The notes beneath the pieces are model-generated. The model was not told the DNA's origin. It saw only the letters and a list, made by a program, of their open reading frames with translations, and ran no database searches. The position numbers were made by a program, and so were the translations under genes. Below are positions 21,135 to 44,362 of a stretch of 64,000 bases of DNA, piece after piece. The stretch is from Alphaproteobacteria bacterium (GTDB taxonomy: Bacteria > Pseudomonadota > Alphaproteobacteria > RF32 > CAG-239), in contig SUUK01000002.1 in assembly GCA_015062535.1 (NCBI GenBank), forward strand, positions 98,724-162,723. Reading direction: 5' to 3'. The stretch's first letter is position 1. Every line of letters begins with the position of its first letter.

Positions 21135-24100
21135 ATGTTTTCTAAGTTTTTTATTGAAAGACCTAGATTTGCGATAGTTATTGCTATTGTGATGAGTTTG
21201 GCCGGATTAATTGCAATTTTCACACTTCCTGTTGCGATGTATCCAGAAATTACCCCTCCACAAGTTACAGTATTTGCGGACTATACTGGTGCTAGTGCCG
21301 AAACGGTTGCCAATACTGTTGCTATTCCGATAGAAAAAGAAATTAATGGTGTTGATAACATGATGTATATGAACTCATCTTCATATAACTCTGGTCGTTA
21401 TCAACTTGATATTAGTTTTGAAATTGGTACTGACCCTGACCTTGCACAAGTAAAAGTACAGAACAGAGTGCAAAAAGCCATTAACTCTCTTCCTGATGAA
21501 GTGCAAGCAAGGGGTGTTAATGTGGTTCGCCGTTCTTCTGAAATTTTGGGCTTTTTACAGGCTATTTCACCAAATGGTACACATGATAGAAACTTCTTAA
21601 ATAACTATGTGACAAACAATATTAAGAATAACTTAGGTCGTCAATATGGTGTTGGTGATGCTAATGTTATGGGTTCTGACTTGAGTATGAGAGTGTGGCT
21701 TGATGCTGATAAAATGGCTGCGCTAAATCTCCCTATTAGTGCGGTTAGAAATGCCATAAGCTCTCAAAACTACCAGCCATCATTGGGTTCTGTTGGTTCA
21801 GAGCCTAATGATGGTACTAGTAAAATAGTATTTTCTTTGGAAACTAAAGGTCGTCTAAATGAGGCTAAAGACTTTGAAAATATTATTGTTAGAACCGAAG
21901 AAGAAGGTGGTTTAGTTAGATTAAAAGATATTGCAACAGTTGAAGTTGGTCCTGAGAACTACTTGTTACAATCTGATGTTGATGGACAGCCAAACGTTGC
22001 AATTATGGTAAATAAACTTTCTGGTGCGAATGCTTTAAAAGCAATGGATGCGGTAAAAAAAGAGCTTAAAAGATTGGAAAAATATTTTCCTGAAGATTTT
22101 GAGGTTAGAATCTTTTTTGATGCGACAGACTTTATTAAAGTATCTATTGAAGAAGTGGTATTTACCCTTGTTTTGACATTTATTTTGGTGGTTTTGGTTT
22201 GTTATGTCTTTTTACAAGACTGGAGAGCAACCCTTATTCCATCTATTGCGATACCTGTGTCAATTTTAGCAACATTTGCGGTGATGTTAGCGCTTGGTTA
22301 TAACTTAAACATTTTAACATTGTTTGGTTTAATTTTGGCGATTGGTTTGGTTGTGGATGATGCGATTATTGTGGTTGAGCGTGTGCTTTATCTAATGGAG
22401 CATGAACACTTAAACCAAAAAGAAGCTGCAAAGAAAGCTATGGAACAGGTGTCTTCTGCGATTGTGGCGGCAACATTGGTGTTACTTGCTATCTTTGTGC
22501 CTATTGCTTTTATGGGTGGTGTGACTGGTAGAATTTATCAACAATTTGCGATTGCTATTTCTTTTGCGGTGCTTTTCTCTGGTGTTAATGCTTTGACTTT
22601 AAGTCCTGCATTGTGTGCTACAATTCTTCGTCCTATTGAGCAAAAGACATCTGGCTGGTTATTTAGATTTGAGCAATTTGTTACTTCATCTAGAAATAAG
22701 TATGTGAAGTTTGTGGCTTTTATTGGTAGAAAAATGGTGGTTATTGTATTTATTGCTCTTGCTTTGATTGCGCTTAACCTCTTTTCTGTTTCTAGCATTA
22801 AATCATCATTCTTGCCAGATGAAGACCAAGGTGTGATTATGGCTAATATTCAACTTCCTGAGGGTAGTGCAGGTAAGAGAACATTGGATGTTATTGATAA
22901 AACTCGTGATATCATTAAAGCTGAAAAAGGTGTTCGTTCTGTTATGAACTTGAGAGGATTTAGTATTTTAGCAGGACAAGGTGAAAATGTTGGTTTTAAC
23001 GTTATCGCATTAAAACCTTGGGAAGAACGTTCTGATATTATAGATTTTTCTACTAATATTAGAAATAGAATTACAGCAGAAATGGCAAAGATTACTGATG
23101 CTAATATTATGTTGTTTGAAATGCCCGCTATTCCTGGACTCGGTAGTAACAACAGTATGGACTTGAGATTACAGTCTATTGAAAGTACTGATATGAACGA
23201 GTTACAAAGGAATTTGAATGCATTTTTGGTTGAACTTAATAAACTTCCAGAAGTAAAGATGGCTTATTCTACATTTACATCTCAAACTCCTCATGCTTAT
23301 TTGGATATTAATAGAGAAAAAGCTGAGCTTATGGGTGTTAGTATTGGTAGTATTTATTCTACACTTCAAACATATTTAGGTTCTATGTATGTTAATGACG
23401 TAAATATTGGTACACAAGCTAACAAAGTTATGGTTCAGGCAGATTGGAAATATCGTAAAAATCTTCAAAGCATTAAGGATTTGTACGTTCAAAGTGCTAG
23501 TGGTGAGATGGTACCATTGGGTAGCTTGATTGAAATTAAGAGAGTTACTCTTCCTCGTGCGGTAGATAGATATAACCAATATCCTGCAGCAACTATTAAT
23601 ATTGTGGCAGCAGATGATTCAAGTTCTGGTGAAGCAATGGAAGCTGTTGAAAAAATGGCAGATGAAAAATTATCAAATAAATATGCATATGAATGGTCTG
23701 GTATGAGCTTGCAAGAAAGACGTAATCAAGGACAAATCAGTATATTAATTATGCTTGCGATTTTGTTTGCTTATTTATTCTTGGTTGCTCAGTATGAAAG
23801 CTGGAGTATTCCTATGTCTGTTATTTTATCAACTTTAACAGCTATGTTTGGTGCATTTGTTGGTATGTGGATTGAGGGATTACCTTTGAGTATATATGCG
23901 CAATTAGGATTGGTATTGCTTGTTGGTTTGTCTGCTAAGAATGCTATTTTGATTGTGGAATTCTCAAAAGAAGAACATGGACATGGCGCAAGTGTGTTAG
24001 ATGCAGCAGTTACAGGGCTTAAAGAACGTTTTAGAGCAGTGTTGATGACAGCCTTAACATTCGTTTTGGGTGTGGCTCCAATGGTTTGGGCAACAGGTGC

Positions 24101-24239
24101 TTGTTCTGGTTCTAGAATTGCGGTTGGTGTACCTGTATTTTATGGTATGCTTGTGGGTACACTTGTTGGTTTAATTGTTATTCCTCTATTGTATATCATG
24201 GTACAAACCATGGTTGATAAGGTTTATAAATCAAAATAA
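21135..24239 (+). CDS. acrB: RND multidrug efflux permease (AcrB/MexB family)
   Basis: 1034 aa, 12 TM with two large periplasmic loops; conserved N-terminal MFSKFFIERPRFAIVIAIVMSLAG. Confidence 0.95.
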   Translation: MFSKFFIERPRFAIVIAIVMSLAGLIAIFTLPVAMYPEITPPQVTVFADYTGASAETVANTVAIPIEKEINGVDNMMYMNSSSYNSGRYQLDISFEIGTDPDLAQVKVQNRVQKAINSLPDEVQARGVNVVRRSSEILGFLQAISPNGTHDRNFLNNYVTNNIKNNLGRQYGVGDANVMGSDLSMRVWLDADKMAALNLPISAVRNAISSQNYQPSLGSVGSEPNDGTSKIVFSLETKGRLNEAKDFENIIVRTEEEGGLVRLKDIATVEVGPENYLLQSDVDGQPNVAIMVNKLSGANALKAMDAVKKELKRLEKYFPEDFEVRIFFDATDFIKVSIEEVVFTLVLTFILVVLVCYVFLQDWRATLIPSIAIPVSILATFAVMLALGYNLNILTLFGLILAIGLVVDDAIIVVERVLYLMEHEHLNQKEAAKKAMEQVSSAIVAATLVLLAIFVPIAFMGGVTGRIYQQFAIAISFAVLFSGVNALTLSPALCATILRPIEQKTSGWLFRFEQFVTSSRNKYVKFVAFIGRKMVVIVFIALALIALNLFSVSSIKSSFLPDEDQGVIMANIQLPEGSAGKRTLDVIDKTRDIIKAEKGVRSVMNLRGFSILAGQGENVGFNVIALKPWEERSDIIDFSTNIRNRITAEMAKITDANIMLFEMPAIPGLGSNNSMDLRLQSIESTDMNELQRNLNAFLVELNKLPEVKMAYSTFTSQTPHAYLDINREKAELMGVSIGSIYSTLQTYLGSMYVNDVNIGTQANKVMVQADWKYRKNLQSIKDLYVQSASGEMVPLGSLIEIKRVTLPRAVDRYNQYPAATINIVAADDSSSGEAMEAVEKMADEKLSNKYAYEWSGMSLQERRNQGQISILIMLAILFAYLFLVAQYESWSIPMSVILSTLTAMFGAFVGMWIEGLPLSIYAQLGLVLLVGLSAKNAILIVEFSKEEHGHGASVLDAAVTGLKERFRAVLMTALTFVLGVAPMVWATGACSGSRIAVGVPVFYGMLVGTLVGLIVIPLLYIMVQTMVDKVYKSK

Positions 24240-28744: not shown

Positions 28745-29518
28745 ATGTCAAAAATCATTACAATGATTCCAGTTAGAATGGCTTCTACCCGTTTGCCAAA
28801 TAAACCTTTGTTAGATATTAATGGCAAAACACTTATTCAACGTGTTTATGAAAATGTAAAAGCTTGTGTGCCAGGTGATATTGTGATTGCGGCTGGTGAC
28901 CAAGTTATTGTTGATGAAGCAAAAAAGTTTGGTGCAAAAGCTATTTTGACTGACCCTAGTTTGCCAAGTGGTACTGACCGTATTTCAGCAGCGCTTAAAG
29001 AACTTGACCCTGATGGTTCTAAGTATGATATTGTAGTTAATTTTCAGGGTGATGGCTTGAATGTTGATCCTAAGATTAATCTTTCTTTGATTGATATGAT
29101 TGAACGCACAAATTGTGATATTGCAACTTGTGGTATGATTTTTAAGAATGAAAAAGATGTTTTAGACCCTAGTATGGTAAAAATTTGTATGGGTTTAAGA
29201 GATGGTGAGAGAGAAGGTCGTTGCTTGTATTTTACAAGAGCTCCAGCTCCTTATATTCGTAATCCTGAAAAATGTGATAATAAAGATTTTTATCACCATA
29301 TTGGTATTTATGTATTTAAGGCATCTTCTTTGCAAAAGATGGTTTCTCTTCCTGTTGGTGTGTTAGAACAAAGAGAATCTTTGGAACAACTTAGAGCTCT
29401 TGAAAATGGTATGACAATTAGAGCTTTGGTAGTTGATAATATGAAACTGGTTGATGAAGCTCCTGCAGATATTAATACTCCAGAAGAGTATGAAGAAGCA
29501 CTAAAGTGGATTAAATAA
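28745..29518 (+). CDS. kdsB: 3-deoxy-manno-octulosonate cytidylyltransferase (CMP-KDO synthetase)
   Basis: IITMIPVRMASTRLPNKPLLDINGKTLIQRV N-terminal signature of KdsB. Confidence 0.9.
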   Translation: MSKIITMIPVRMASTRLPNKPLLDINGKTLIQRVYENVKACVPGDIVIAAGDQVIVDEAKKFGAKAILTDPSLPSGTDRISAALKELDPDGSKYDIVVNFQGDGLNVDPKINLSLIDMIERTNCDIATCGMIFKNEKDVLDPSMVKICMGLRDGEREGRCLYFTRAPAPYIRNPEKCDNKDFYHHIGIYVFKASSLQKMVSLPVGVLEQRESLEQLRALENGMTIRALVVDNMKLVDEAPADINTPEEYEEALKWIK

Positions 29519-33657: not shown

Positions 33658-34491
33658 GTGAGCAATAAGTCTATAGGATTGTATGTTTGTTGGCATAACA
33701 AATGTCCTAGTTTTGATAATGAATTATTGTATGCAGTGAATGATGGGATAATTGAGGGTGATAATATATCTTCAAAGGGATTGCATTATGGTGAATTAAA
33801 AGTCACTTATTGGATTTGGAAGAATGCAAAGGAAGATATTGTTGGACTGTTTCATTATCGTCGATTTTTGAATTTATTAAATAATGAAGCTATGTGCAAT
33901 AAGGTTAGTAAAGATTTTGCTTCTAGATATGGTTTTACTAGGGGTAGAATTATTGAATTAATGGGTAAATATGATGTAATTTTGCCATATAAAAATCCTC
34001 GCATTGTGAAAGAAAAGCATCCAAGTGTTTATGACTATTATGCAATGGAGCATTTTAAAGATGATTTAGATATTACTCTTGAGATATTACAAGAAAAATA
34101 TCCTCAAATGTATGATACAGCTATTGAAATGTTAAAAAATAGCAAACAAGGGTATGTTGCGAATCTAATTATTGCTAAAAAAGAAATTTTTGATAGATAT
34201 GCTAGTTGGTTGTTTGATATTTTGTTTGAAGTTGAAAAACGTATTCATGATAAAGTTATTTTAAGAGATAAATATCAACAAAGAGTTTATGGTTTTATTA
34301 GCGAACGTTTAATGGCGGTATTTTTTGAATATTTGGCAAAAAATGAAGATATAAATATTTTGGAAGCTCCTATGTTGTTTTTAGAAGAAGACAAATGGAA
34401 GTTTTTTAAATATTATTTAAAGAAGATAAATAGAAAAATTTTAACTTTAATCGGTTTTGGTAGAAAGGAATGGAATTTATATGTCAAATAA
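33658..34491 (+). CDS. DUF4422-family putative glycosyl (galactofuranosyl) transferase
   Basis: 277 aa; YGELKVTYWIWKN...VGLFHYRRF matches DUF4422 signature (YgElTglYwiWKN...vGlcHYRR) common in capsule/EPS loci with glf. Confidence 0.6.
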   Translation: MSNKSIGLYVCWHNKCPSFDNELLYAVNDGIIEGDNISSKGLHYGELKVTYWIWKNAKEDIVGLFHYRRFLNLLNNEAMCNKVSKDFASRYGFTRGRIIELMGKYDVILPYKNPRIVKEKHPSVYDYYAMEHFKDDLDITLEILQEKYPQMYDTAIEMLKNSKQGYVANLIIAKKEIFDRYASWLFDILFEVEKRIHDKVILRDKYQQRVYGFISERLMAVFFEYLAKNEDINILEAPMLFLEEDKWKFFKYYLKKINRKILTLIGFGRKEWNLYVK

Positions 34492-35623
34492 AGTAAATTT
34501 TATTGTTGGGGCTGGTTTTAGTGGTGCAACAATGGCTCGTAAAATTGCAGAAGAACTTAATGAAAAAGTTATTGTGATTGACCAAAAGGAGCATATTGGT
34601 GGTAATTCATTTGATTATAGAGATGATAATGGGATTATGATTCACAAATATGGTTCTCATATTTTTCATACAAATTTAGAAAATGTGTGGAAGTTTGTTA
34701 GTCGTTTTACCAAATTTAATACTTATATGCATAAAGTGATTGCTGTTATCGACGGTATTGAAACAACTATTCCATTTAATTTTCGCACTTTGTATGATGT
34801 ATTTCCAGAAACTTTAGCTAGACGTTTAGAAGAGAAATTGTTAGCAAACTTTGAATATAATAAAAAGATACCAATTTTAGAGTTTCAAAAACAAGATGAT
34901 GAAGATTTGAGGTTCTTAGCTAATTATGTATATGAAAAAGTATTTTTGCATTACACAACCAAACAATGGGGTGTAAGTCCTAATGAAGTAGATGGAGCTG
35001 TTACGGCAAGAGTTCCTGTATATATCAGTTGTGACGAAAGATATTTTCAAGATAAATATCAAGGTATACCAATAAATGGATATACAGAGGTTATCAAAGA
35101 GATGTTAAATCATCCAAATATTGAAGTTAGATTAAATACTCGCTTTGAAGATGTAAAAGAAAGTTATGATAGATTGTTTTATACAGGTCCGATAGATGAA
35201 TATTTTGGATATAAGTTTGGTGAACTTCCTTATAGAAGTGTAAACTTTAAGTTTGAAGAATATGATATGCCATATTATCAAAGTAATGCATGTGTTAACT
35301 ATCCATGCAATTATGATTTCACAAGAATTCATGAGTATAAGTATTATTTGAATGACTACTCTGAAAAGACGGTGATTGCGAAAGAGTATTCTGAATTTTT
35401 TGAACGTGGCAAAAATGAAAGATATTATCCAATACCAAATGATGAAAGTGCGAAATTGTATGCAAAATACAAAGAAGAAGCAGGTAGGCTTCCTAATGTA
35501 TATTTCTTAGGTCGTTTGGGTGATTATAAATATTATGACATGGATAAAGCAATTAATCGTGCTTTAGAATTGTTTGAAGAAGTTAAGAACGGGGCAAACT
35601 ACATACAAAGTGTTGTAGCGTAA
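34481..35623 (+). CDS. glf: UDP-galactopyranose mutase
   Basis: NFIVGAGFSGATMARKIAEEL FAD-binding fingerprint and GGNSFDYRDDNGIMIHKYGSHIFHT; ATG 34481 with AGGAA RBS (track ORF starts at 34457). Confidence 0.92.
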   Translation: MSNKVNFIVGAGFSGATMARKIAEELNEKVIVIDQKEHIGGNSFDYRDDNGIMIHKYGSHIFHTNLENVWKFVSRFTKFNTYMHKVIAVIDGIETTIPFNFRTLYDVFPETLARRLEEKLLANFEYNKKIPILEFQKQDDEDLRFLANYVYEKVFLHYTTKQWGVSPNEVDGAVTARVPVYISCDERYFQDKYQGIPINGYTEVIKEMLNHPNIEVRLNTRFEDVKESYDRLFYTGPIDEYFGYKFGELPYRSVNFKFEEYDMPYYQSNACVNYPCNYDFTRIHEYKYYLNDYSEKTVIAKEYSEFFERGKNERYYPIPNDESAKLYAKYKEEAGRLPNVYFLGRLGDYKYYDMDKAINRALELFEEVKNGANYIQSVVA

Positions 35624-35668
35624 GGATATTGGTGAATTTTATTAAAATTAAAGAAAAGGACTTGGACT

Positions 35669-37609
35669 ATGAATAAGATTTTACAACCTAAAGTATCAAT
35701 TGTTGTACCAATTTATGGTGTAGAAAAATATTTACATCAATGCGTTGATAGTATTTTGGCACAAACACTTAAGGATATTGAGATTATTTTAGTAGATAAT
35801 GGGTCAAAGGATAAATGCCCTGAAATTGTAGATGAATATGCTAAAAAAGATAGCAGAATTGTGGCAATACATAAGCCCAATGGTGGTTATGGATCAGCTA
35901 TAAATAAAGGTTTGGATATTGCAAAAGGGGAATATGTTGGGATTGTAGAGTCTGATGACTATATTGATTCTGATATGTATGAAAAATTGTACAATAGAGC
36001 AATTAATACTAAAGCTGATATGGTTAAAGGAAATTTTGATTATGTAAGTGATAAAACTGGTGCTCGTCGTAAAGAAACAATATTAATGCAACTATTTGAA
36101 GAGCAGAAGGGGGTATTCACACTTGCAGATTGCCCTAAAATGATTTATATTTTCGCATCTATTTGGAGTGCAATCTACAAAAAAGATTGGTTAAATAAAC
36201 ATCGGATTAGAGTTGTAGAAGACATAAAACCTTATGAAGATATTCCCTTTTTTACAGAAACCATTTCTAAGGCTGACAAGATAGTATTTGAGCCAGGAGC
36301 GAAATATAATTATAGAATAGATGTTGAAGGAAGTTCTACTAGTACTCTTAAACCAACAATTGTTCACTATTTGTTACAAAAGGGTCGTGTTAGAGAAATA
36401 TTAGCAAAAAATAACATGTATAATGAGGAAATAAAAGAGTACTACTGGAAAAGTGTGTTTGTCGGTTCAAAAGTGTGGTTTTTGAAGAAAAATAACAGAT
36501 ATAAACGAAAATTTTATAAAGAGATGAAGCTCTTGTTCAATAAAGCAACTAAAGATGAAATTACTTTTAAATATTTTACACCTTCAGAGAAGAGAGAATT
36601 CAATAGAATATGTAAAGCTTCGTGTTTTGCCTATATTTTACATCGTAAGGTTAAGCGATTTGGGAAAAATATATATTCAACTAAAAAAACGGCATCTCAC
36701 CGTATTATAAAAGTTTTAGGGATTAAAATTAATATAAAGAATAAAAATAAAAATAAAAAAGATGTTAATTTAGCAGAAATAAAAGAAAAATTAGAGCATA
36801 TTGAAAATTTAATTAGAATTCAAATTAATCCACAAAATTTGCCTAAGGCAAATGGATATATGCGTATTCAACAGACAGCCTCTTTAGCTTTGTTAAATAA
36901 ATTAAAGTTGTTTTTGGAAAAAAATAAATATAGCTATTGGTTAGATTTTGGAACATTATTAGGTGGAGCTAGACATTCAGGTTTTATTCCTTGGGATGAT
37001 GACATAGATATTTCTATGCCAAGAAAAGATTTTGAAAATTTGAAGAAAAATATATCTGATTTTGCATATGGTGATTTTAGTTATAGTATCGGAGATATTA
37101 TTCGTGTTTTTTATAAAAACACTTCAGCTCAAGTAGATATTTTTCCTTATGATACAGGAAATCAAGTTGAAATACCTCAACATTCGGAATATAAAAAAAT
37201 TGTTGAAAAATTAGCAAGTTTGTATAAATGCATTCCGTTTAATTGGTCTAATGTAAGAGTATCTACTATTCCTGAAGATTTTAAAGAAAATTTAGAAAAT
37301 ATATATGTTAATGAAATATTAGAAAATAAGCCAATTGCGGAAAAAGGGTATATGTTTTTAGCTTTTCATTGTTTTGCGTTTAAAAGAGTTTTGTATAGAT
37401 ATGATGATATATTTCCTTTAGGAAAAATAAAATTTGAAGGAGAAGAATATCCTTGCCCTAACAAACTTGATAAATATTTATCGTTATATTGGGGAAATTA
37501 TATGGAGTTACCCAATAATTGTGTTAGCAGACACCCTAATATGATAAGAGCTATGCAGAATTATGAAAATATTATAGATATGTATAATTTGATTGACAGT
37601 GATAAATAA
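35669..37609 (+). CDS. bifunctional GT2 glycosyltransferase / LicD-family phosphotransferase
   Basis: N-terminal VSIVVPIYGVEKYLHQCVDSILAQTLKDIEIILVDNGSKD...VESDD (GT-A DxD); C-terminal WLDFGTLLGGARHSGFIPWDDDIDISMPRKDF (LicD motif). Confidence 0.78.
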   Translation: MNKILQPKVSIVVPIYGVEKYLHQCVDSILAQTLKDIEIILVDNGSKDKCPEIVDEYAKKDSRIVAIHKPNGGYGSAINKGLDIAKGEYVGIVESDDYIDSDMYEKLYNRAINTKADMVKGNFDYVSDKTGARRKETILMQLFEEQKGVFTLADCPKMIYIFASIWSAIYKKDWLNKHRIRVVEDIKPYEDIPFFTETISKADKIVFEPGAKYNYRIDVEGSSTSTLKPTIVHYLLQKGRVREILAKNNMYNEEIKEYYWKSVFVGSKVWFLKKNNRYKRKFYKEMKLLFNKATKDEITFKYFTPSEKREFNRICKASCFAYILHRKVKRFGKNIYSTKKTASHRIIKVLGIKINIKNKNKNKKDVNLAEIKEKLEHIENLIRIQINPQNLPKANGYMRIQQTASLALLNKLKLFLEKNKYSYWLDFGTLLGGARHSGFIPWDDDIDISMPRKDFENLKKNISDFAYGDFSYSIGDIIRVFYKNTSAQVDIFPYDTGNQVEIPQHSEYKKIVEKLASLYKCIPFNWSNVRVSTIPEDFKENLENIYVNEILENKPIAEKGYMFLAFHCFAFKRVLYRYDDIFPLGKIKFEGEEYPCPNKLDKYLSLYWGNYMELPNNCVSRHPNMIRAMQNYENIIDMYNLIDSDK

Positions 37610-37622
37610 TATAGGATTTGTT

Positions 37623-38993
37623 ATGAAAAAAGTGATTACATATGGAACATTTGATTTATTACATCAAGGGCATGTGAATATTTTAAAAAGAGCAAAAGAA
37701 CAGGGCGATTATTTAATTGTTGGAGTTACTAGTGAAAATTATGATGAACAACGTGGCAAATTAAATGTAATGCAGTCTTTGTTTGAACGTATAGAAAATG
37801 TAAAAAAAACAGGTTTGGCTGATCAAATTGTTGTTGAAGAATATATGGGCCAGAAAATCCAAGATATTCAAAAATATGGAGTTGATAAATTTGTTATTGG
37901 CTCTGACTGGCTGGGTAAATTTGATTATTTAAATGAATATTGTGAAGTAATTTATTTAGATAGAACAGTTGGCATTTCTTCAACTGATTTAAGGAATAGT
38001 AAAAATAATATTCTTAGATTGGGGGTTGTAGGAAATGGTCGTATTGCTAAACGATTTGTAAAAGAAGCTAGATTTGTTAGTGGTTTAGAAATAGAATATG
38101 TATTTGGGCGTAATGAGAATAGACTATCCGAATTTTGTAAAGATTATAGTTTAGTTGGATATGATACGGATTATGATGTGTTTTTGGAAAAAGTTGACGC
38201 TGTGTATATAGCTTTACCTCATACACTTCATTATGTATTTGCTAAAGAAGCTTTACTTAAAGGAAAGCATGTATTATGTGAAAAGCCTATAACACTTTCA
38301 CTAGATGAAGCAAAAGAATTATATACTATAGCTAAAGAAAATAATTTAATAATTCAAGAAGCAATTAAGACTGTTTATGCTCCTTGTTTTGCTCGTTTAT
38401 TATCTATGGTAAAAAGCGGTGTTATTGGAAAAATTAAAGATGTTGAGGCTACTTTTACAAAATTAATAAATGACAAAACTCTTCGTGAATATGATTTATT
38501 ATCAGGAGGAGGAAGTTTAACAGAATTAGGTAGCTATCCTCTTTGTTTGATAACCAAAGTATTGGGGACAAGTCCTAAAAAAGTTATATATACAGATTTT
38601 AAAGATAAAGAAACAGGTGTTGATTTAATGAATAAAACAACTTTAATTTATTCAAATGCAATAGCTACGTCAACAGTTGGAATAGGAGTTAAAAAGGAAG
38701 GAAATTGTATTATTTCTGGTACTGAAGGATATATATATATACCAGCACCATGGTGGAAAACTGAATATTTTGAAGTTCGTTTTGAAAATCAATCTAAAAA
38801 TAAAAAGGTCTATGTCGAATTTACTGATGATGGTTTGAGATATGAGATTGCAGACTTTCTTAAGGCTGTAAATACCAAAAAAGAGACTTATAAACTTACT
38901 TTTGATGAAAGTCTATTTATTAGTAGTGTTATAGATGCTTATAAGAATAATGGAGAATTTTCTTTTGAAAAAGAATATATTTGCTTGGAATAA
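37623..38993 (+). CDS. bifunctional cytidylyltransferase (TagD/glycerol-3-phosphate cytidylyltransferase-like) / Gfo-Idh-MocA family oxidoreductase (CDP-alditol synthesis)
   Basis: N-terminal VITYGTFDLLHQGHVNILKRAKEQGDYLIVGVTSE (HxGH cytidylyltransferase); C-terminal LRLGVVGNGRIAKRFVKEA Rossmann + EKP motif of Gfo/Idh/MocA. Confidence 0.72.
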   Translation: MKKVITYGTFDLLHQGHVNILKRAKEQGDYLIVGVTSENYDEQRGKLNVMQSLFERIENVKKTGLADQIVVEEYMGQKIQDIQKYGVDKFVIGSDWLGKFDYLNEYCEVIYLDRTVGISSTDLRNSKNNILRLGVVGNGRIAKRFVKEARFVSGLEIEYVFGRNENRLSEFCKDYSLVGYDTDYDVFLEKVDAVYIALPHTLHYVFAKEALLKGKHVLCEKPITLSLDEAKELYTIAKENNLIIQEAIKTVYAPCFARLLSMVKSGVIGKIKDVEATFTKLINDKTLREYDLLSGGGSLTELGSYPLCLITKVLGTSPKKVIYTDFKDKETGVDLMNKTTLIYSNAIATSTVGIGVKKEGNCIISGTEGYIYIPAPWWKTEYFEVRFENQSKNKKVYVEFTDDGLRYEIADFLKAVNTKKETYKLTFDESLFISSVIDAYKNNGEFSFEKEYICLE

Positions 38994-39010
38994 TTTTTTA
39001 TGAAATTGTT

Positions 39011-39961
39011 TTATCGGTTTAGAAAAGTAAATAGTTTAATTTTGTTTTTTAGTGAAAGGCCTTTGTAGGTTATTAAATTTTGGGTTTTTAGTTGTCTTAT
39101 AAGGTCTTTTGTTTGATTAATTAACTCGGTGTCTTTTGAGCGGAGAGCCGAGTTCATCATCATTTTTATTGTTCGTGATATTCTTGTTTGTTTTACCTTT
39201 TGCCACTTTTTAGGCGCTTTTTCTTGATAATAGTTGTAAACAGCATTTATTCCTTTGACATAATCACAAGCTTTTTGATAGTTGAAACTACTGCGCATTA
39301 TTGATGAACCTGAAATACGGTATCCATATAAACGTGATTTTAGCCAAACAAAACCATTTGCACGTTCAAAAACTTGGCAGTTATATACCCAATCTTCATA
39401 ATATATGTGTGGTACAAACTCTATGTCTGATATGACGCTTCTTTTGTATAGTTTGTTCCAGACATTAAAATGGATAAAATTGTTTTTGTGTAATAGTACT
39501 TTTAGTGCATCTTTGTAAATGATAGGGTGGGCAGTGGTGTTTTTGAATTTATCGTTTTTTATGGTCATCTTTTCAAAATTACAGCCAATAATATCAAAGC
39601 CTAGCCCTGTTTGACTATATAAACATTCTAAAAAATTAGTTGCATAAAAATCATCACTATCTATAAAAGCAATGTACTTTCCGGTTGATTTTTTTATACC
39701 ATTATTGCGAGCGCATGAAAGACCTTGGTTTTCTTGGTCTATTATTGTTATACGGGGGTCTTTGGAGGCGTATTCTTCTAATATTTCTAAAGAGTTGTCT
39801 GTTGAACCATCATTAATGCAAATTAATTCCCAGTTGGTGAAAGTTTGATTGATAACACTTTCTATGCTTTGCCTTAAATACAAAGAAGTATTGTATACTG
39901 GCATTATTACCGATATTTCGGGAGTGGTGGTTTTGTTAGTCATGATAGTCCATTGTTTCAA
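39011..39961 (-). CDS. family 2 glycosyltransferase
   Basis: ISVIMPVYNTSLYLRQSIESVINQTFTNWELICINDGSTDNS...FIDSDDF. Confidence 0.85.
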   Translation of the reverse strand: MKQWTIMTNKTTTPEISVIMPVYNTSLYLRQSIESVINQTFTNWELICINDGSTDNSLEILEEYASKDPRITIIDQENQGLSCARNNGIKKSTGKYIAFIDSDDFYATNFLECLYSQTGLGFDIIGCNFEKMTIKNDKFKNTTAHPIIYKDALKVLLHKNNFIHFNVWNKLYKRSVISDIEFVPHIYYEDWVYNCQVFERANGFVWLKSRLYGYRISGSSIMRSSFNYQKACDYVKGINAVYNYYQEKAPKKWQKVKQTRISRTIKMMMNSALRSKDTELINQTKDLIRQLKTQNLITYKGLSLKNKIKLFTFLNR

Positions 39962-40205
39962 TTAAACGTTCGATTAAATGAAACATATAATTTTAAAATA
40001 GGTATGTAAACCTTATTTATTTTTTTGGGGGAATTTGGTGGATAAGTAATTTTTTATGAGGATTTGGTAAGGTTGTAACAAAAGAATATATACTTTTGGC
40101 TATATTCTAGAACCTTTGTTTATATTCAGTTCTATATCTTTTAGGATTATATAGTGGTCATTAGTTGTGTTTTTAATCGGACGTTTAGATAAAACGGTGG
40201 GATTG

Positions 40206-41237
40206 ATGAAGCAAGAATTACGGACTAATGAAATTTCTGTAATTATGCCTATTTATAAAACTAAAGTTGAGCATTTGCGCTTGGCAATTCAAAGCGTTTT
40301 GGCTCAAAGTTTTAGTGATTTTGAGTTTATTATACTAAATGATAGCCCTCAGGATAAACGTTTGAAGGAGATTGTAGATAGCTTTGCAGATAATCGTATT
40401 AAATATTTTGAAAATGAGGTTAATCTTGGAATTGCAAAAAGCTATAATAAGTTGCTTGATTTGGCTAAAGGTAAATATATTGCGCTTATGAATCATGATG
40501 ATGAAATGAAAAAAGAGCGCCTTAAAAAACAATATGAATTTTTGGAAAAAAATAGTGATGTAGGGCTTGTTGGAACTGCTTATAAAAAGTTTGGTGAGGT
40601 AAATAGGTTTAAAAATATATTGTGCCCGAAAAGTCATGATGAGATTTTGGCGATGTTTTTATTTAAATCTCCAGTTCATCATCCTACTATCATGATGCGA
40701 GGTGATATTATCAAAAAATATAATATTCGTTATAACGAAGAGTTTATTAGTCTAAATGACAGACAGCTGTGTTGGGAGTTTAGTAAATATTCTAGGGTAT
40801 CGAATCTAGATGAGGTGTTGTATAAATATCGGTTTCATCCGGATATGACCTCTAAAAAGATGAAGATGGATATTAGAAAAGAAAGAGCGAAGTTTCATAA
40901 GCTTTGGTTTGAGTATAATGATATAAACTTGAGTGATGATGAAGTTGATGTCTTTGATAATTATGTGACTTTTGGTAGAGCAAAAATTAAGGATAAGAGT
41001 GTTATTAAAAAATCTGTTGCAGTGCTTGATAAGTTGGTTGAGATAAACGAATCTAAAAACTTATTAAATAATGTTGCTTTTAGGAAAGTTTGTGCAGGGT
41101 ATGCTAGGAAACGTTGTTTGAATGCGATTTTTTGCGGATTATTGAATATTAAAGATATTATCAATTCTACAAAACTTCCGATGAAGAAAAAAGGGCAGAT
41201 GCTGTTTTTTAATACTGTTTTTGGGTGGAGAAAGTAG
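40206..41237 (+). CDS. family 2 glycosyltransferase
   Basis: ISVIMPIYKTKVEHLRLAIQSVLAQSFSDFEFIILNDSPQD; ATG 40206 (track ORF from 40167). Confidence 0.8.
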   Translation: MKQELRTNEISVIMPIYKTKVEHLRLAIQSVLAQSFSDFEFIILNDSPQDKRLKEIVDSFADNRIKYFENEVNLGIAKSYNKLLDLAKGKYIALMNHDDEMKKERLKKQYEFLEKNSDVGLVGTAYKKFGEVNRFKNILCPKSHDEILAMFLFKSPVHHPTIMMRGDIIKKYNIRYNEEFISLNDRQLCWEFSKYSRVSNLDEVLYKYRFHPDMTSKKMKMDIRKERAKFHKLWFEYNDINLSDDEVDVFDNYVTFGRAKIKDKSVIKKSVAVLDKLVEINESKNLLNNVAFRKVCAGYARKRCLNAIFCGLLNIKDIINSTKLPMKKKGQMLFFNTVFGWRK

Positions 41238-41241
41238 AGTT

Positions 41242-42090
41242 ATGAAAAAGCTAGCTGTACATCTTCATTTGTATTATCTTGAGCAATTAGATGAGATTTT
41301 AGAAAAGCTTTGTAATCTTGAAGAAATCGACTTTGACTTGTTTGTAACGATGTCTAAAGTTGATGAGGAAGTTAAGCGTAAAATACTAAATAAATTTTCG
41401 AATGCGAAAGTTTTTGTGGTGGCGAATCGGGGGTATGATATTGGGCCGTTTATTTGGTTTTTGCATCAGATTAATCTAGATGACTATGAGTATGTTTTGA
41501 AGTTGCATACGAAGGGTAAAAAAAGTAGCAACTATACATTTATTAAAAATAGAAGACTAGATAACGCTCTTTGGGGTAAAATTATGTGGGATAGTATGCT
41601 CAAATCAAAAGAGCGGGTTAGGAAAAATATACAAATATTAGATAGCAATGAAAATATTGGAATGGTTGGCTCGACGTATTGTTTTAGCAATGAAGAAAGG
41701 CACTATTTGCATTTGATGAATGATATAAATATTGCTATGGAGAAAATGGGGTTTCAGAAAATAAGTGGTTTAAGCTTTATTGCTGGGTGTATGTTTATGT
41801 GTAGGGCTAAAGTGTTAAAGCCATTGCTTATATATTCGCTTAATGATTTTGATGAAACTAATGGTAAGGTAAAAGATGAGACTCTAGCTCATGTGGTGGA
41901 GAGGTTGTTTGGGGCTATAGTTTTGGCGTTAGGGTATGATATTTTTCAAGTAAAGAATAGAGAATATTTTTGGGATTTTTTTAAGATTGCATTTAAGCGT
42001 GCGCTTATTCAAAAAAAGGTAACTAAATCAGGAAAAACAATTGTTAAGGTATGCAAAATACCGGTGTATATTAAAGATATGGAGGTATAA
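41242..42090 (+). CDS. RgpF-like (rhamnan synthesis protein F family) glycosyltransferase
   Basis: LAVHLHLYYLEQLDEI... N-terminal HLYY signature of RgpF family; overlaps upstream GT2. Confidence 0.55.
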   Translation: MKKLAVHLHLYYLEQLDEILEKLCNLEEIDFDLFVTMSKVDEEVKRKILNKFSNAKVFVVANRGYDIGPFIWFLHQINLDDYEYVLKLHTKGKKSSNYTFIKNRRLDNALWGKIMWDSMLKSKERVRKNIQILDSNENIGMVGSTYCFSNEERHYLHLMNDINIAMEKMGFQKISGLSFIAGCMFMCRAKVLKPLLIYSLNDFDETNGKVKDETLAHVVERLFGAIVLALGYDIFQVKNREYFWDFFKIAFKRALIQKKVTKSGKTIVKVCKIPVYIKDMEV

Positions 42091-42092
42091 AT

Positions 42093-43583
42093 ATGAAACT
42101 AGGGGCTTTGAAAGTACTTAGATTTTTTCATTTAATAGATAAATGTGAATATAATGTAAAACGTCAGATTGAAGTTATAAAAAGAACTCCGCTGTTTGAT
42201 GAAAAGTGGTATTTGGAAACAAATCCTGATGTGAAAAATATGAAAGGCGGAGCGATTAAGCACTATGTGGTTAATGGGTGGAAAGAAGGTAGGAATCCAA
42301 ATAAAGAGTTTGATGGTGAGATGTATCTTAAAAACTTTCCTCAATTAAAAGAAATGAATGTTTGTCCGTTGTTTCATTTTATTAAAAATAATAAGAAAAA
42401 AAGTTTTGAAATGTCTGAGTTTGCGGCTCATTTGTTTGATGTATGTGAAAGAAAAGATAAATTTGTTAAAAAAGATGAGACAGGAATTAATGAAAAAGAT
42501 TTAACTAAATTAATTGCTTTTTATTTGCCTCAATTTCATTTGTTTGAAGAAAATGAAAAATGGCATGGAAAAGGTTTTACTGAATGGACTAATGTAACTA
42601 AAGCTCTACCTCATTATGTGGGGCATTATCAACCACAATTGCCAATTGATGTTGGATTTTATGATTTAGCAAATGTTGAAGTTATGAGAAGACAGGTTGA
42701 ACTTGCAAAGTTATATGGAATTCATGGATTTTGTTTTCATTATTATTGGTTTTCTGGTAAAAAATTAATGGAAAAACCTCTATATAATTGGCTTAAAAAT
42801 AAGGATATAAATTTTCCGTTTTGTCTTTGTTGGGCTAATGAAAATTGGTCTAAGTTGTGGGATGGCGGTGATAGAGAAGTTTTGATGAAACAAGAATTAA
42901 AAAATGGAGATGATGAGAAATTTGCAAAAGACATTATCTGCTTTTTTAAGGATGATAGATATATAAGGGTAAATGGTGCGCCGTTGCTTATCGTTTATAG
43001 AGCAAGTTTGTTTAGTAATGAAAGGTTTTGCAAATTTATAGATAAGTTAAAAAGTGTTTGTAAAGAAAATGGAATTGATGATGTTTATGTTTGTTTAACA
43101 AATTCTTTTTCGTTTAATGAGAATCCTAAAAAATGGAACGCTAATGCAATTGTTGAGTTTCCTCCGCATATGGTTATTGCTCCACTTGTTAGAAAAAAGG
43201 TTATGTTTAGTACAAGTTGTTTAAATGTGTATGATTTTGGGCATTATATAAGAGAAGGAAAGCATCTTTATAAGACAAAGTTTACTTTATTTAAGACGGT
43301 GTTTCCAGGGTGGGATAATACTGCAAGAAAGGGTTTTAGTGGTGGTTCGGTTTTTGAAGGTTGTACTCCTCAGATTTATCAAAAATGGTTGGAAGACTGT
43401 ATTAGGTATACACAAAAGGAGCATAGTGATTTTGAACAATTTGTATTTATTAATGCTTGGAATGAATGGGCTGAAGGAGCTCATTTGGAACCTGATAGAT
43501 ATTATGGGTATGCATATTTAGATGCAACTAAAAAAGCTCTTTATAATACTCAGAAAGTAAATCTTGAGAAAGAGGCTTCTTAA
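42093..43583 (+). CDS. WbsX-family glycosyltransferase/glycoside-hydrolase-like protein
   Basis: 496 aa; IAFYLPQFHLFEENEKWHGKGFTEWTNV matches Glyco_tran_WbsX signature; extra about 140-aa N-terminal region. Confidence 0.68.
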   Translation: MKLGALKVLRFFHLIDKCEYNVKRQIEVIKRTPLFDEKWYLETNPDVKNMKGGAIKHYVVNGWKEGRNPNKEFDGEMYLKNFPQLKEMNVCPLFHFIKNNKKKSFEMSEFAAHLFDVCERKDKFVKKDETGINEKDLTKLIAFYLPQFHLFEENEKWHGKGFTEWTNVTKALPHYVGHYQPQLPIDVGFYDLANVEVMRRQVELAKLYGIHGFCFHYYWFSGKKLMEKPLYNWLKNKDINFPFCLCWANENWSKLWDGGDREVLMKQELKNGDDEKFAKDIICFFKDDRYIRVNGAPLLIVYRASLFSNERFCKFIDKLKSVCKENGIDDVYVCLTNSFSFNENPKKWNANAIVEFPPHMVIAPLVRKKVMFSTSCLNVYDFGHYIREGKHLYKTKFTLFKTVFPGWDNTARKGFSGGSVFEGCTPQIYQKWLEDCIRYTQKEHSDFEQFVFINAWNEWAEGAHLEPDRYYGYAYLDATKKALYNTQKVNLEKEAS

Positions 43584-43588
43584 GCAAA

Positions 43589-44362
43589 TTATTTTACTTC
43601 AAAGCGGAGGAGGGAGTTTGCTTTTTTAAGTGATGCATCTAGGCTTAAGTTTGGAGGAAGCCTATTGTTTCGGTATAAAGAACGTAGTTCGGCTCCATAT
43701 AGAGAATAGAGCTGTTGGAATAATGGTTTTGATGTATCTATTTGTTCGATTGTGTTTAATAAATAATGAATATCTGCATTCAATAGTTGTTCGGTTGTGT
43801 TTAACATTGGCTTTGTTTTGGGTGTTTCAATTTCTTCTGGAGTTTCTTCAACCACAATGTGTTCTGCAGTTAATACTGGAATATTTTCTTCTAATTCATA
43901 AGCCTCAGATGCGTTTGATGGAGTTGCTATTTCTGTTGGTGGTGTTTGGGTAATGGTTACTATTTCAGGTTCTAAAATGTCTTTTGGATGAGGCTTAGGT
44001 AAATATTTTTGGGGCTTATTTTGGGGTTTAGAAGCGTCTTTATGAGTAGATGCTTCTATAACTGATTTTTTTAATTTTCGACGCTCTACAGGTAATGATA
44101 TTTTGCGACGCAAATTATTTTTATATTGGGTTGATGGTGATAAATCTTCTTTGTTGGTGTCATTAGAAACAGTGTTGTTTTTTATATCATTATTTTTTTT
44201 AGGGTATCTTGCTTGGAGTTTTATATCATTTATGGTTGTGTTTTCTTGAAATGCTCCAGTTGGTACAAAGAAAGCATATTGGAGCTCTATATCTTTTGCA
44301 TATAGGGATTTATGTATAAAAAAACTAGACAATATACTTAAAAGAATATACATATATTTCAT
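43589..44362 (-). CDS. hypothetical secreted Pro/Thr-rich protein
   Basis: 257 aa; signal peptide MKYMYILLSILSSFFIHKSLYA; low-complexity PKP/TP-rich middle. Confidence 0.45.
   Translation of the reverse strand: MKYMYILLSILSSFFIHKSLYAKDIELQYAFFVPTGAFQENTTINDIKLQARYPKKNNDIKNNTVSNDTNKEDLSPSTQYKNNLRRKISLPVERRKLKKSVIEASTHKDASKPQNKPQKYLPKPHPKDILEPEIVTITQTPPTEIATPSNASEAYELEENIPVLTAEHIVVEETPEEIETPKTKPMLNTTEQLLNADIHYLLNTIEQIDTSKPLFQQLYSLYGAELRSLYRNNRLPPNLSLDASLKKANSLLRFEVK

Follow-up and report, generated by a model that had tools for sequence, protein, structure and literature searches.

The window analysed here is a 64-kb stretch of DNA from an uncultured low-GC MAG, a gut or rumen Gram-negative with the NCBI name Alphaproteobacteria. 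Between positions 33658 and 43583 it holds eight intact glycan genes (Table 1), which agree with gene calls made independently on an identical contig from a metagenome. Pfam and NCBIfam profile searches of all eight ORFs upheld every domain assigned in the preliminary description, including the LicD and cytidylyltransferase domains on which that description had made its reading depend; neither moved to another family. E-values of such size in eight neighbouring genes are far beyond chance. The plus-strand genes are spaced by -11 to 45 nt. Specifically, the DUF4422 gene overlaps glf by 11 nt, and TagD::Gfo starts 13 nt past the end of GT2::LicD. The sole minus-strand gene, a GT2 whose inversion the preliminary description does not mention, is convergent with the TagD::Gfo gene (17-nt gap) and divergent from the next GT2 (223-nt spacer). 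At 27-33%, GC is uniformly low throughout the block compared with the flanks (~33-35%), and the whole block is kept in 23 of 23 contigs with identical LepA. The kdsB and RND permease genes score above their NCBIfam cutoffs, in agreement with the diderm context proposed earlier. Membrane segments were predicted in none of the eight locus proteins. The whole window also shows no gene for a flippase, polymerase, ligase, initiating transferase or ABC/Kps exporter, so that the earlier remark on missing flippase, polymerase and export genes applies to all 64 kb.

Table 1. Genes of the glycan locus, parts of its two fusions, and two flanking genes
Feature	Position	Strand	Evidence
RND permease	21135..24239		TIGR00915 1092 bits (cutoff 940)
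kdsB	28745..29518		NF003952 217.6 bits (cutoff 193)
GT111 (DUF4422) glycosyltransferase, predicted galactofuranosyltransferase	33658..34491	+	PF14393 E 2e-52
Glf, UDP-galactopyranose mutase	34481..35623	+	TIGR00031 415.9 bits (cutoff 303.75), PF03275 E 6.5e-72
GT2::LicD two-domain transferase	35669..37609	+	GT2 E 1e-37, LicD E 3e-25
GT2::LicD, GT2 scaffold	~35696..36718		
GT2::LicD, in-frame AAAATA repeat	36725..36759		
GT2::LicD, LicD domain	~36917..37492		
GCT/TagD cytidylyltransferase::Gfo/Idh/MocA, predicted CDP-polyol synthase	37623..38993	+	Pfam/NCBIfam matches
TagD::Gfo, cytidylyltransferase	37623..38006		CTP_transf_like E 2e-18
TagD::Gfo, Gfo/Idh/MocA oxidoreductase	38007..38993		GFO_IDH_MocA N- and C-terminal E 3e-23, 5e-10
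GT2 glycosyltransferase	39011..39943	-	PF00535 E 4e-38
GT2 glycosyltransferase (alternative start 40206)	40167..41237	+	PF00535 E 3e-27
RgpF-family protein, C-terminal half of model only	41242..42090	+	PF05045 E 3e-28
WbsX-family protein	42093..43583	+	PF14307 E 1e-120

Residues 32-245 of the DUF4422 protein align to the N-terminal GT111 domain of Klebsiella pneumoniae WbbM (PDB 6u4b, E 1e-23), which is the only characterised member and a UDP-Galf transferase (PMC12269835). Glf exceeds its equivalog cutoff and has the N-terminal FAD-binding motif GAGFSG. The gene order DUF4422/GT111-glf-GT2 is the same as in Kingella kingae pamABC, a locus likewise without an exporter, whose product is attached to LPS (PMC12269835). 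Unlike its Kingella counterpart, the GT2 of the window has a LicD domain. Because of this domain, and because its scaffold also occurs in loci lacking glf (L015), GT2::LicD is probably not a PamC-type galactan synthase.

The two domains of GT2::LicD span residues 10-173 (GT2) and 417-608 (LicD), the in-frame repeat encoding a Lys/Asn-rich linker, and the motifs DNGS43, ESDD94, GTLLG428 and WDDDID442 are present. The LicD domain matches FKRP (6kaj), and the GT2 part matches the N-terminus of TagF from the wall teichoic acid system of Staphylococcus epidermidis. In 22 of the best 120 relatives, this GT2 scaffold (47-53% identity over ~345 residues) is joined to a TagF-type domain, and in 10 to LicD. 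The GT2::LicD architecture is rare, and here the earlier judgement that both fusions are unusual stands. The closest relatives of the locus (L002 and L003, TagD::Gfo 77-78% identical) have a split GT2+TagF or a 743-aa GT2::TagF in place of GT2::LicD. Such sister proteins match S. epidermidis TagF end to end, as seen for P0150. These alignments show the domain relationship, and GT2::LicD is best read as a version of S. epidermidis-type GT2::TagF with LicD swapped for TagF. The phosphotransferases themselves differ, LicD having a nucleotidyltransferase fold and TagF a GT-B-like one, and the organism of the window is diderm.

The N-terminal domain of TagD::Gfo matches the TagD/TarD structures 1coz (E 2e-33) and 2b7l (E 6e-33). 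The fusion has the motifs HQGH14, K46, RTVGISST114, GNGR137, CEKP219 and GSYP303, none of which varies across an alignment of 18 sequences, and the Gfo domain is catalytically intact as judged from its residues. The AlphaFold model (pLDDT 82.8) has KijD10, DHDH and GnnA as its nearest solved folds. The cytidylyltransferase domain is homologous to S. epidermidis TagD and 36-53% identical to stand-alone TagD genes, but its score of 108.3 misses the cutoff of the NCBIfam TagD equivalog (165.4). Compared with 28 stand-alone TagD sequences, it has K44R and a one-residue insertion, and has lost W74 and the RYVDEVI dimer motif; N73Y, E75G and D93S are further changes in the head-group region. Because of this divergence, its substrate may differ from sn-glycerol-3-P. 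All 8000 scored candidates for the fusion have E<1e-5, and the best 120 of these 8000, which are 61-77% identical, all have its three-domain architecture. Among the source names are Alphaproteobacteria, Elusimicrobia and Bacteroides, and the fusion also turned up in genome scans of Akkermansia, Micropruina and Ruminococcus albus. Contrary to the earlier judgement, this fusion is not rare but widespread.

Coupling of a reductase with a cytidylyltransferase to make a CDP-alditol is found in Bcs1 of Haemophilus influenzae b, where the two are fused, and in TarI/TarJ of Staphylococcus aureus, and the logic is as in the window. However, the cytidylyltransferase of the window is PF01467 GCT-type rather than IspD-type, its reductase is Gfo/Idh/MocA rather than SDR or MDR, and its likely product has three carbons instead of being ribitol. 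Hence, the Bcs1-type chemistry suggested at first is an analogue, and the fusion is not a member of that type.

We also inspected the neighbours of the fusion gene. By blastp alone, a LicD or TagF-like ORF lies within 5 kb in 16 of the 22 loci with sufficient flanking sequence, and Pfam adds one more case (L021). The L015 cassette consists of GT2::TagF and TagD::Gfo alone; in L102, GT2::LicD is next to an overlapping TagD::Gfo as in the window; in L101, TagD::Gfo is followed by LicD. TagD::Gfo is thus a cassette partner of CDP-polyol phosphotransferases, a relationship that is new here, and CDP-alditol function, as named in the preliminary description, is the best reading. The only donors that TagF-type enzymes are known to use are CDP-glycerol and CDP-ribitol, which argues for a CDP-polyol as the shared donor. 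The interchange of LicD and TagF-type domains likewise argues for a polyol-phosphate donor and not choline. In Haemophilus lic1 (licABCD), too, a LicD-family transferase uses a head group activated with CDP on a glycolipid made in the cytoplasm, the lipooligosaccharide, and no dedicated exporter is involved; the window differs in lacking a LicA kinase, a LicB transporter and a cytidylyltransferase of the LicC type (PF12804/PF00483).

A second correlation, likewise new here, concerns the EKP lysine of the Gfo domain. Of 12 fusions without it, 10 lie next to an aminotransferase gene, the enzymes belonging to two unrelated families, and one has an SDR gene, whereas lysine-keeping fusions of the window type have an aminotransferase in 0 of 15 (Fisher p 8e-6, for sequences that are not phylogenetically independent). 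The cytidylyltransferase domain is nearly the same in both groups. Together with the true GCT structures and stand-alone TagD genes that the TagD domain resembles, and with a glycerophosphodiesterase fusion of the same Gfo subfamily (see below), these patterns speak for three-carbon chemistry and for Gfo as a reductase.

As for the other genes, the plus-strand GT2 was called with 356 aa or 343 aa depending on its start. The match of the RgpF-family protein spans positions 269-503 of the 503 in the PF05045 model, and no rhamnose (rml) genes were found in the window. The WbsX protein matches PF14307 over residues 140-478 and has an extra N-terminal region of ~140 residues. Neither protein has an NCBIfam match or a relative among solved structures. 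The gene mix had been called typical of Gram-positive teichoic-acid/rhamnan or Haemophilus Bcs1-type capsule chemistry, but it is not specific to Gram-positives: LicD-family, GCT and TagF-like enzymes also build Gram-negative capsules, where LicD with CDP-glycerol chemistry is already known (PMC11666461). Actinobacillus pleuropneumoniae serotypes 3/7 have the GCT CpsB, the LicD-family Gro3P oligomerase CpsC, the TagF-like CpsA and the GT+TagF polymerase CpsD (PMC11666461, PMC8262930). As proposed for the window, a GCT-family enzyme supplies CDP-polyol to phosphotransferases, there both LicD-family and TagF-type, and a glycosyltransferase domain works with these to make glycosyl-polyol-phosphate chains (PMC11666461, PMC8262930). 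The window differs in that an oxidoreductase is fused to the cytidylyltransferase and LicD is fused to GT2 instead of standing alone; it has Galf genes and lacks TagF and TPR domains as well as KpsMT/CS/DE and poly-Kdo linker genes.

On balance we favour a reading in which soluble enzymes at the cytoplasmic face of the inner membrane build a Galf-containing glycan substituted or interrupted by polyol-phosphate, with TagD::Gfo as the CDP-glycerol donor synthase and GT2::LicD as its user. Glf, whose assignment its equivalog-level match shows, would make UDP-Galf, and the GT111 enzyme, by homology, would transfer Galf. TagD::Gfo would be self-contained: its intact, probably NADPH-using Gfo domain would reduce a carbonyl phosphate from glycolysis, with DHAP or glyceraldehyde-3-P as the likeliest substrate, and its GCT domain would join the product to CTP, yielding CDP-glycerol of either stereochemistry or, less likely, another CDP-alditol. 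In GT2::LicD, transfer of the polyol-phosphate would fall to the LicD half and addition of a hexose to the GT2 half, the two perhaps alternating as in teichoic-acid-like polymerases. Since LicD enzymes usually carry out single transfers, the polymerase role is speculative. The two other GT2 enzymes and the RgpF- and WbsX-family proteins would complete the structure. As the locus encodes no membrane protein, assembly would have to take place on a lipid acceptor and export would depend on machinery from elsewhere, which could be MsbA (glycan on lipid A-core) or a Wzx/ABC system (on undecaprenyl phosphate); that the locus is such a dependent module is plausible.

One argument against this reading is that ordinary glycerol-3-P ought to require no separate pathway where GpsA is present. 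The fusion might instead make a larger CDP-alditol (CDP-ribitol from ribulose-5-P, CDP-pentitol or CDP-hexitol), as a third independently evolved CDP-alditol synthase beside Bcs1 and TarIJ. The fused reductase is exactly Bcs1 logic, the head-group region is remodelled and the score is sub-cutoff, the LicD relative FKRP transfers ribitol-P, and so do TagF-type relatives such as TarL. Moreover, a plain TagD+LicD pair lies beside the fusion in L102 and L031, which argues that the two cytidylyltransferases make different products. We nevertheless consider a larger alditol unlikely. A glycerophosphodiesterase is another, newly observed fusion partner of the Gfo subfamily (35-51% identity; L035), the closest GT2::LicD (54% identity, L017) has a plain 131-aa TagD as partner, and LicD domains partnered with the fusion or with plain TagD interleave by identity. 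The remodelled positions are common to the aminotransferase-linked clade and are therefore markers of the clade rather than of one substrate, and some of what differs is the RYVDEVI motif of the dimer interface. In another reading, the cytidylyltransferase half would make ordinary CDP-sn-glycerol-3-P from the cellular pool, with Gfo as a scaffold or catalysing an unrelated reaction. The loss of the dimer motif fits a Gfo domain taking over oligomerisation. The plain TagD serving the closest GT2::LicD relative agrees with this, as does the sister clade, whose Gfo is kept without catalytic residues and thus has a structural role there. In the window-type clade, however, where columns are on average 71% identical, the Rossmann glycines, the EKP lysine and Tyr305 never vary, indicating selection on catalysis, and aminotransferase/SDR companions occur only beside Gfo domains without the catalytic lysine, which ties the Gfo reaction to donor supply. 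A Gfo that is a scaffold or serves another reaction is hence improbable for the window.

The route is close to an even call between direct extension of lipid A-core to a lipooligosaccharide flipped by MsbA, and an undecaprenyl-linked O-antigen or capsule with the genes for its initiation and export elsewhere. Haemophilus lic1 is one precedent for direct extension. Kingella pamABC is another (PMC12269835), and the eight soluble proteins and the absence of an initiating transferase, Wzx, Wzy, Wzm/Wzt, Kps and WaaL from the 64 kb agree with it. Among homologous cassettes, that of L102 adjoins a GT9 heptosyltransferase-family gene, that of L030 adjoins genes for a lipid A acyltransferase and a Kdo/WaaP-kinase, and that of L101 adjoins Wzy_C plus GT8. 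On the other hand, Wzx/Wzy loci of L021, L027 and R. albus (L106) contain this module. A set of seven transferase-like proteins, RgpF and WbsX types among them, is more typical of polymer loci, and kdsB is 4 kb upstream, with housekeeping genes in between. It may be that the eight genes contribute to more than one product. A mosaic of independent Galf, polyol-P and RgpF/WbsX modules decorating different glycans would account for the inverted gene and its spacer, for the TagD::Gfo-phosphotransferase pair standing alone in L015, and for the rarity of glf and DUF4422 in loci that have the fusion (1-2 of 22). Tight plus-strand spacing, conservation of the block in every contig with identical LepA and its uniformly low GC make such a mosaic rather doubtful. 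The locus is mostly ordinary, but it contains a widespread, unstudied two-domain enzyme, TagD::Gfo.

As a surface-glycan cluster, the locus as a whole is ordinary, and the preliminary description of it is real and mostly well read. What is new is its donor-synthase cassette, which is abundant and uncharacterised, within a pathway type that is known. The locus consists of eight intact ORFs at the coordinates originally assigned, and their borders match those called independently for an identical metagenome contig of 309 kb (JGI 3300024270). All the domains named at that stage were recovered in profile searches, i.e., DUF4422, Glf, GT2::LicD, the cytidylyltransferase–oxidoreductase fusion TagD::Gfo, two GT2 proteins, RgpF, and WbsX. 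Two details had been missing: one of the two GT2 genes lies on the minus strand, and the match of the RgpF-family protein is confined to the model's C-terminal half. The plus-strand genes are closely packed with gaps of -11 to 45 nt, and a 223-nt spacer separates the inverted GT2 gene from the following gene. A promoter and terminator scan found fewer promoter-like sites than in shuffled controls. The same block is present in 23 of the 23 contigs read that carry an identical LepA. Hence, this population carries the locus as a fixed feature, and the reading as a strain-variable island is rejected.

Features of the window and of related loci
Feature	Position	Strand	Remark
Glycan locus	window 33658-43583		eight genes
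GT2::LicD	window 35669-37609	+	646 aa; gene directly before TagD::Gfo
AAAATA array	window 36725-36759		5.7 copies, in frame
TagD::Gfo	window 37623-38993	+	456 aa
Inverted GT2	window 39011-39943	-
Signal-peptide-like protein	window 43589-44362	-	hydrophobic N-terminus; directly after locus, divergent from next
Signal-peptide-like protein	window 44406-45158	+	hydrophobic N-terminus
HAD gene	window 45227-45895
SAA-matching protein	window 26071-26460	+	129 aa
Kinase-like::pyrophosphatase	window 27603-28406	+	267 aa
Extended CoaD	window 52844-53974	-
Sulfatase-family protein	window 60920-62434	+	504 aa
Lysine-less fusions preceded by aminotransferase	L004:14607-15974		also L024, L027, L030, L031, L032, L023, L028, L029, L106
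L106 fusion	NC_014824.1 345735-347009		Ruminococcus albus 7 plasmid
L106 aminotransferase	L106:10893-11966
Gfo::GDPD protein	L035:11666-13462		599 aa
Phosphonate genes	L030:11362-15612

The GC content of the locus is 29.8%, compared with about 33-35% in the flanks. Across the whole window (1-64000, 32% GC) the GC skew is positive, ranging from +0.10 to +0.48 in 2-kb windows, and such a strong positive skew is striking in a genome labelled Alphaproteobacteria. The flanks are housekeeping, with lepA upstream and two secreted proteins, a HAD hydrolase, nrdD/nrdG, and trpS downstream. The two secreted proteins match no family, and homologues were not found beside related cassettes. The kdsB gene and an RND pump in the window confirm a diderm host, as had been proposed. 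Three further proteins in the window were noted. One matches SAA (serum amyloid A) in precomputed Pfam annotation, an odd hit for a bacterium, and has no NCBIfam match; another unites AAA_33 (kinase-like) and inorganic pyrophosphatase domains in a single chain; the third is CoaD (pantetheine-phosphate adenylyltransferase, TIGR01510 124 bits) with about 200 extra C-terminal residues.

Glf reaches the equivalog level (TIGR00031, 415.9 bits vs cutoff 303.75) and has the FAD-binding GAGFSG (GxGxxG) motif at its N-terminus. The DUF4422 protein (PF14393, 178.5 bits) can be aligned with the WbbM GT111 domain (PDB 6u4b, E 1e-23). By homology of its DUF4422 domain to the WbbM N-terminal domain it belongs to GT111, and UDP-Galf is its predicted donor. 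The WbbM GT111 domain is the sole characterised member of the family and is a Galf transferase (PMC12269835). Kingella pamABC has the same families in the same order, GT111-glf-GT2, and the Kingella locus likewise has no exporter (PMC12269835). In a galactan module of the pamABC type, the GT2 serves as a Galf polymerase. Neither solved nor curated relatives were found for the RgpF- and WbsX-family proteins, and no rhamnose genes are present; these two family names are therefore not to be taken literally.

None of the eight locus proteins has a predicted membrane segment. The Pfam annotation of the whole 64-kb window contains no initiating phosphoglycosyltransferase, Wzx, Wzy, Wzm/Wzt, Kps, or WaaL, so the original remark that flippase, polymerase, and export genes are missing extends to all 64 kb, and the window does not hold a Wzx/Wzy- or ABC-transporter-dependent O-antigen or capsule locus. 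Nor does it hold a group 2 capsule locus, which is marked by a PF04464 (TagF-like) polymerase together with KpsMT, KpsCS, and KpsDE: both PF04464 and Kps genes are absent from the 64 kb, although PF04464 is present in sister loci. Initiation and export genes may be located elsewhere in the genome. The settings of the relatives are LPS-core-like in some cases and Wzx/Wzy in others. A protein 17 kb from the locus has several membrane segments at its N-terminus and a domain of the Sulfatase family, the arrangement seen in phosphoethanolamine or phosphoglycerol transferases of the EptA/LtaS/OpgB type; NCBIfam gives no match for this protein.

The LicD domain of GT2::LicD scores 90.2 bits against PF04991 (cutoff 22.6), carries an acidic WDDDID motif at residue 442, and matches FKRP with an E of 7.6e-7. 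Both gathering score and DxD-type motif place it in the LicD phosphotransferase family. The linker joining its GT2 and LicD domains is rich in Lys/Asn and encoded by an AAAATA array, the sole repeat found. A change in copy number would alter the linker length and keep the reading frame. Phase variation is rejected, as the array is in frame and there is no homopolymer of at least 9 A/T or at least 6 G/C. The two-domain protein is rare, in line with the first impression of an unusual fusion: of the best 120 relatives, just 10 combine both domains, and among the top 150 of a full scan of 1.84 billion representatives only two proteins are complete and co-linear, with one more being partial.

The opposite holds for TagD::Gfo, which had also been considered unusual. 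All 8000 scored candidates have E<1e-5, and the best 120 relatives, 61-77% identical, share its set of three Pfam domains without exception. Source names include Alphaproteobacteria, Elusimicrobia, and Bacteroides; scans of genomes and plasmids extend the list to MAGs of rumen Alphaproteobacteria (77-78% identity), Akkermansia, Micropruina along with other Actinomycetes, and the cultured Ruminococcus albus 7. The fusion is abundant in gut and rumen metagenomes and spans at least five phyla by source names and genome scans.

The fusion gene recurs beside those of CDP-polyol phosphotransferases. By blastp alone, a LicD or TagF-like ORF lies within 5 kb of the fusion in 16 of the 22 fusion genes with enough flank; Pfam adds one more locus, L021. 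Specifically, the related locus L015 has only a 744-aa GT2::TagF and TagD::Gfo flanked by housekeeping genes, and L103, syntenic with L015, retains the fusion among other glycan genes at the same site. In L102, GT2::LicD overlaps TagD::Gfo as in the window and a GT9 (heptosyltransferase-family) gene follows; L101 contains GT2 genes, TagD::Gfo, LicD, GT8, and Wzy_C; and in L011, GT2, LicD, and TagD are three separate neighbours in the same order. Over about 345 residues, the GT2 half of the window's GT2::LicD shares 47-53% identity with that of 745-aa GT2::TagF proteins, which can be aligned along their full length with S. epidermidis TagF. This GT2 scaffold is also present in L015, with no glf within its 10-kb flanks. 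The two closest relatives of the window fusion neighbour a GT2::TagF (L003) or its split version (L002). From the GT2 homology and these two neighbourhoods, it follows that LicD took the place of a TagF-type domain on one scaffold beside one donor synthase. Since TagF-type enzymes use, to our knowledge, only CDP-glycerol or CDP-ribitol, this swap favours a CDP-polyol as donor over choline or ethanolamine.

The cytidylyltransferase half has the catalytic features of TagD, i.e., HQGH14 (HxGH), K46, and RTVGISST114, all invariant across the fusions, and matches TagD/TarD structures with E values of 2e-33 to 6e-33. It scores 108.3 bits against the TagD/GCT equivalog TIGR01518, below the cutoff of 165.4. 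Compared with 28 stand-alone TagD proteins, it has K44R, a one-residue insertion after K46, a non-conserved W74, and TGLADQI instead of RYVDEVI. RYVDEVI is the dimer-interface motif of GCT (PMC8262930), and part of the difference is therefore probably a matter of new quaternary structure. As proof of a new substrate the differences are weakened, being common to both fusion clades and partly at the dimer-interface motif.

The Gfo half contains GNGR137 (Rossmann), CEKP219 (EKP lysine), and GSYP303 (Tyr305), as expected of Gfo/Idh/MocA enzymes. These are invariant in the window-type clade, where mean column identity is 71%. The nearest solved folds are KijD10, dihydrodiol dehydrogenase (DHDH), and GnnA, with TM-scores of 0.83-0.89 to KijD10, DHDH, and close structural-genomics relatives; the fold search returned generic Gfo neighbours only and no two-domain precedent. 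Gly-Arg, not an acidic residue, follows the second strand, from which we infer a possible NADP(H) preference. In 12 more distant fusions the EKP lysine is missing, in most cases together with the Tyr and the Rossmann glycines. An aminotransferase lies immediately upstream in 10 of these 12 (class V in eight, class I/II in two) and an SDR gene downstream in one; an intact aminotransferase neighbour is found in none of the 15 lysine-keeping fusions with known neighbours (Fisher p 8e-6, with sequences treated as unrelated despite their kinship). The cytidylyltransferase domains of the two groups have only three conservative differences. This pattern suggests that the lysine-less clade makes a CDP-amino-alcohol donor. 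Within a Wzx/Wzy cluster of R. albus, the genes run LicD, aminotransferase, fusion, LicD, GNAT, LicD. The R. albus aminotransferase matches PDB 3f0h, deposited merely as 'Aminotransferase', with an E of 9e-188; from this very close relatedness, a structure exists for this aminotransferase type. In L035, a Gfo domain of the same subfamily is joined to a glycerophosphodiester phosphodiesterase (GDPD); it is 35-51% identical to the fusion Gfo domains, and generic family members reach 32% or less.

The simplest model covering the lysine/aminotransferase, cytidylyltransferase, and L035 facts is reduce-or-transaminate. A carbonyl phosphate, with DHAP or glyceraldehyde-3-P as obvious precursors, would be reduced by an active Gfo domain, or transaminated by the aminotransferase beside a Gfo domain without catalytic residues; the product would then be cytidylylated, and the head group would pass to LicD or TagF. 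In Campylobacter, serinol phosphate arises by transamination of DHAP. Papers have confirmed serinol phosphate in Campylobacter capsule pathways. Under the reduce-or-transaminate model, the window enzyme would therefore be a self-contained CDP-glycerol synthase. Two points sit uneasily with that product: a cell with GpsA should have no need of such a synthase, and L102 has a plain TagD+LicD pair beside the fusion pair. Another stereoisomer (sn-1) or a larger alditol is possibly the product instead; by other routes, most bacteria are not known to produce sn-1 glycerol phosphate. However, identity does not separate the LicD domains that accompany the fusion from those that accompany plain TagD, the two sets being interleaved, and the closest GT2::LicD relative has a plain TagD partner, both of which speak against a non-standard product.

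Other donors were rejected. CDP-2-glycerol, as in pneumococcal Gtp1-3, is at most a lead: a kinase or phosphotransferase partner is missing here, and the HAD gene after the locus resembles pyrimidine 5'-nucleotidase (below cutoff) and has no homologue near relatives. Against phosphocholine stand the absence of licA, licB, and licC and the TagF-type swap, which argues for a polyol-phosphate donor. CDP-inositol is discarded, as inositol-phosphate synthase occurs in none of the annotated neighbourhoods. PF01467 enzymes are able to cytidylylate phosphonates (PMC6697681), but for HEP/AEP no PEP mutase or phosphonopyruvate decarboxylase is in the Pfam lists of the window and of the annotated window-type loci L015, L101, L102, and L103. 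L030 does have a PEP mutase, but with its own cytidylyltransferase. There, PEP mutase::PF01467 cytidylyltransferase, TPP decarboxylase, and class-V aminotransferase constitute a 2-aminoethylphosphonate pathway and adjoin LicD, TagF-like, lipid A acyltransferase, and Kdo/WaaP-kinase genes.

Known systems resemble the locus in part. Bcs1/TarIJ combine an IspD-type cytidylyltransferase with an SDR/MDR ribulose-5-P reductase, whereas Pfam gives only PF01467 and PF01408/PF22725 for the fusion, unrelated domains; because the families differ, the likeness is functional analogy only. From lic1, which has LicA choline kinase, LicB permease, and a LicC-type cytidylyltransferase, LicD alone is present, and the cytidylyltransferase is of GCT type instead. 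The gene mix had been taken as typical of Gram-positive teichoic-acid/rhamnan or Haemophilus Bcs1-type capsule chemistry. Such chemistry is not specifically Gram-positive, because Gram-negative pathogens assemble teichoic-acid-like capsules with LicD, GCT, and TagF-type enzymes, among them a glycerol-phosphate oligomerase of the LicD family (PMC11666461).

Taken jointly, we regard it as possible, though rather doubtful, that window-type TagD::Gfo proteins are self-sufficient CDP-polyol synthases and the lysine-less sister clade CDP-amino-alcohol makers, both feeding interchangeable LicD/TagF enzymes. The former would be a large uncharacterised class drawing its polyol phosphate from a glycolytic carbonyl, possibly as sn-1 glycerol phosphate or another alditol. 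The sister clade would have recruited aminotransferases twice, from unrelated families, for a product such as CDP-serinol, and both clades would serve gut and rumen bacteria of several phyla. The literature searched, with most subscription journals outside its coverage, holds no description of a TagD::Gfo fusion, the aminotransferase-linked clade, or CDP-serinol.

Polyol-phosphate and zwitterionic phosphodiester decorations shape surface recognition by hosts, phages, and antibodies, and the enzymes installing them also serve vaccine-antigen production. If CDP-glycerol is all that the fusion makes, this is a surface-glycan cluster of an ordinary kind. If the CDP donor is non-standard, it could carry the opposite enantiomer of glycerol phosphate or a different alditol, and an amino-alcohol in the aminotransferase-linked clade, which is testable in the cultured carrier Ruminococcus albus 7. 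Such a donor would be a new activated building block and would account for the recurrent cassette in many glycan loci.
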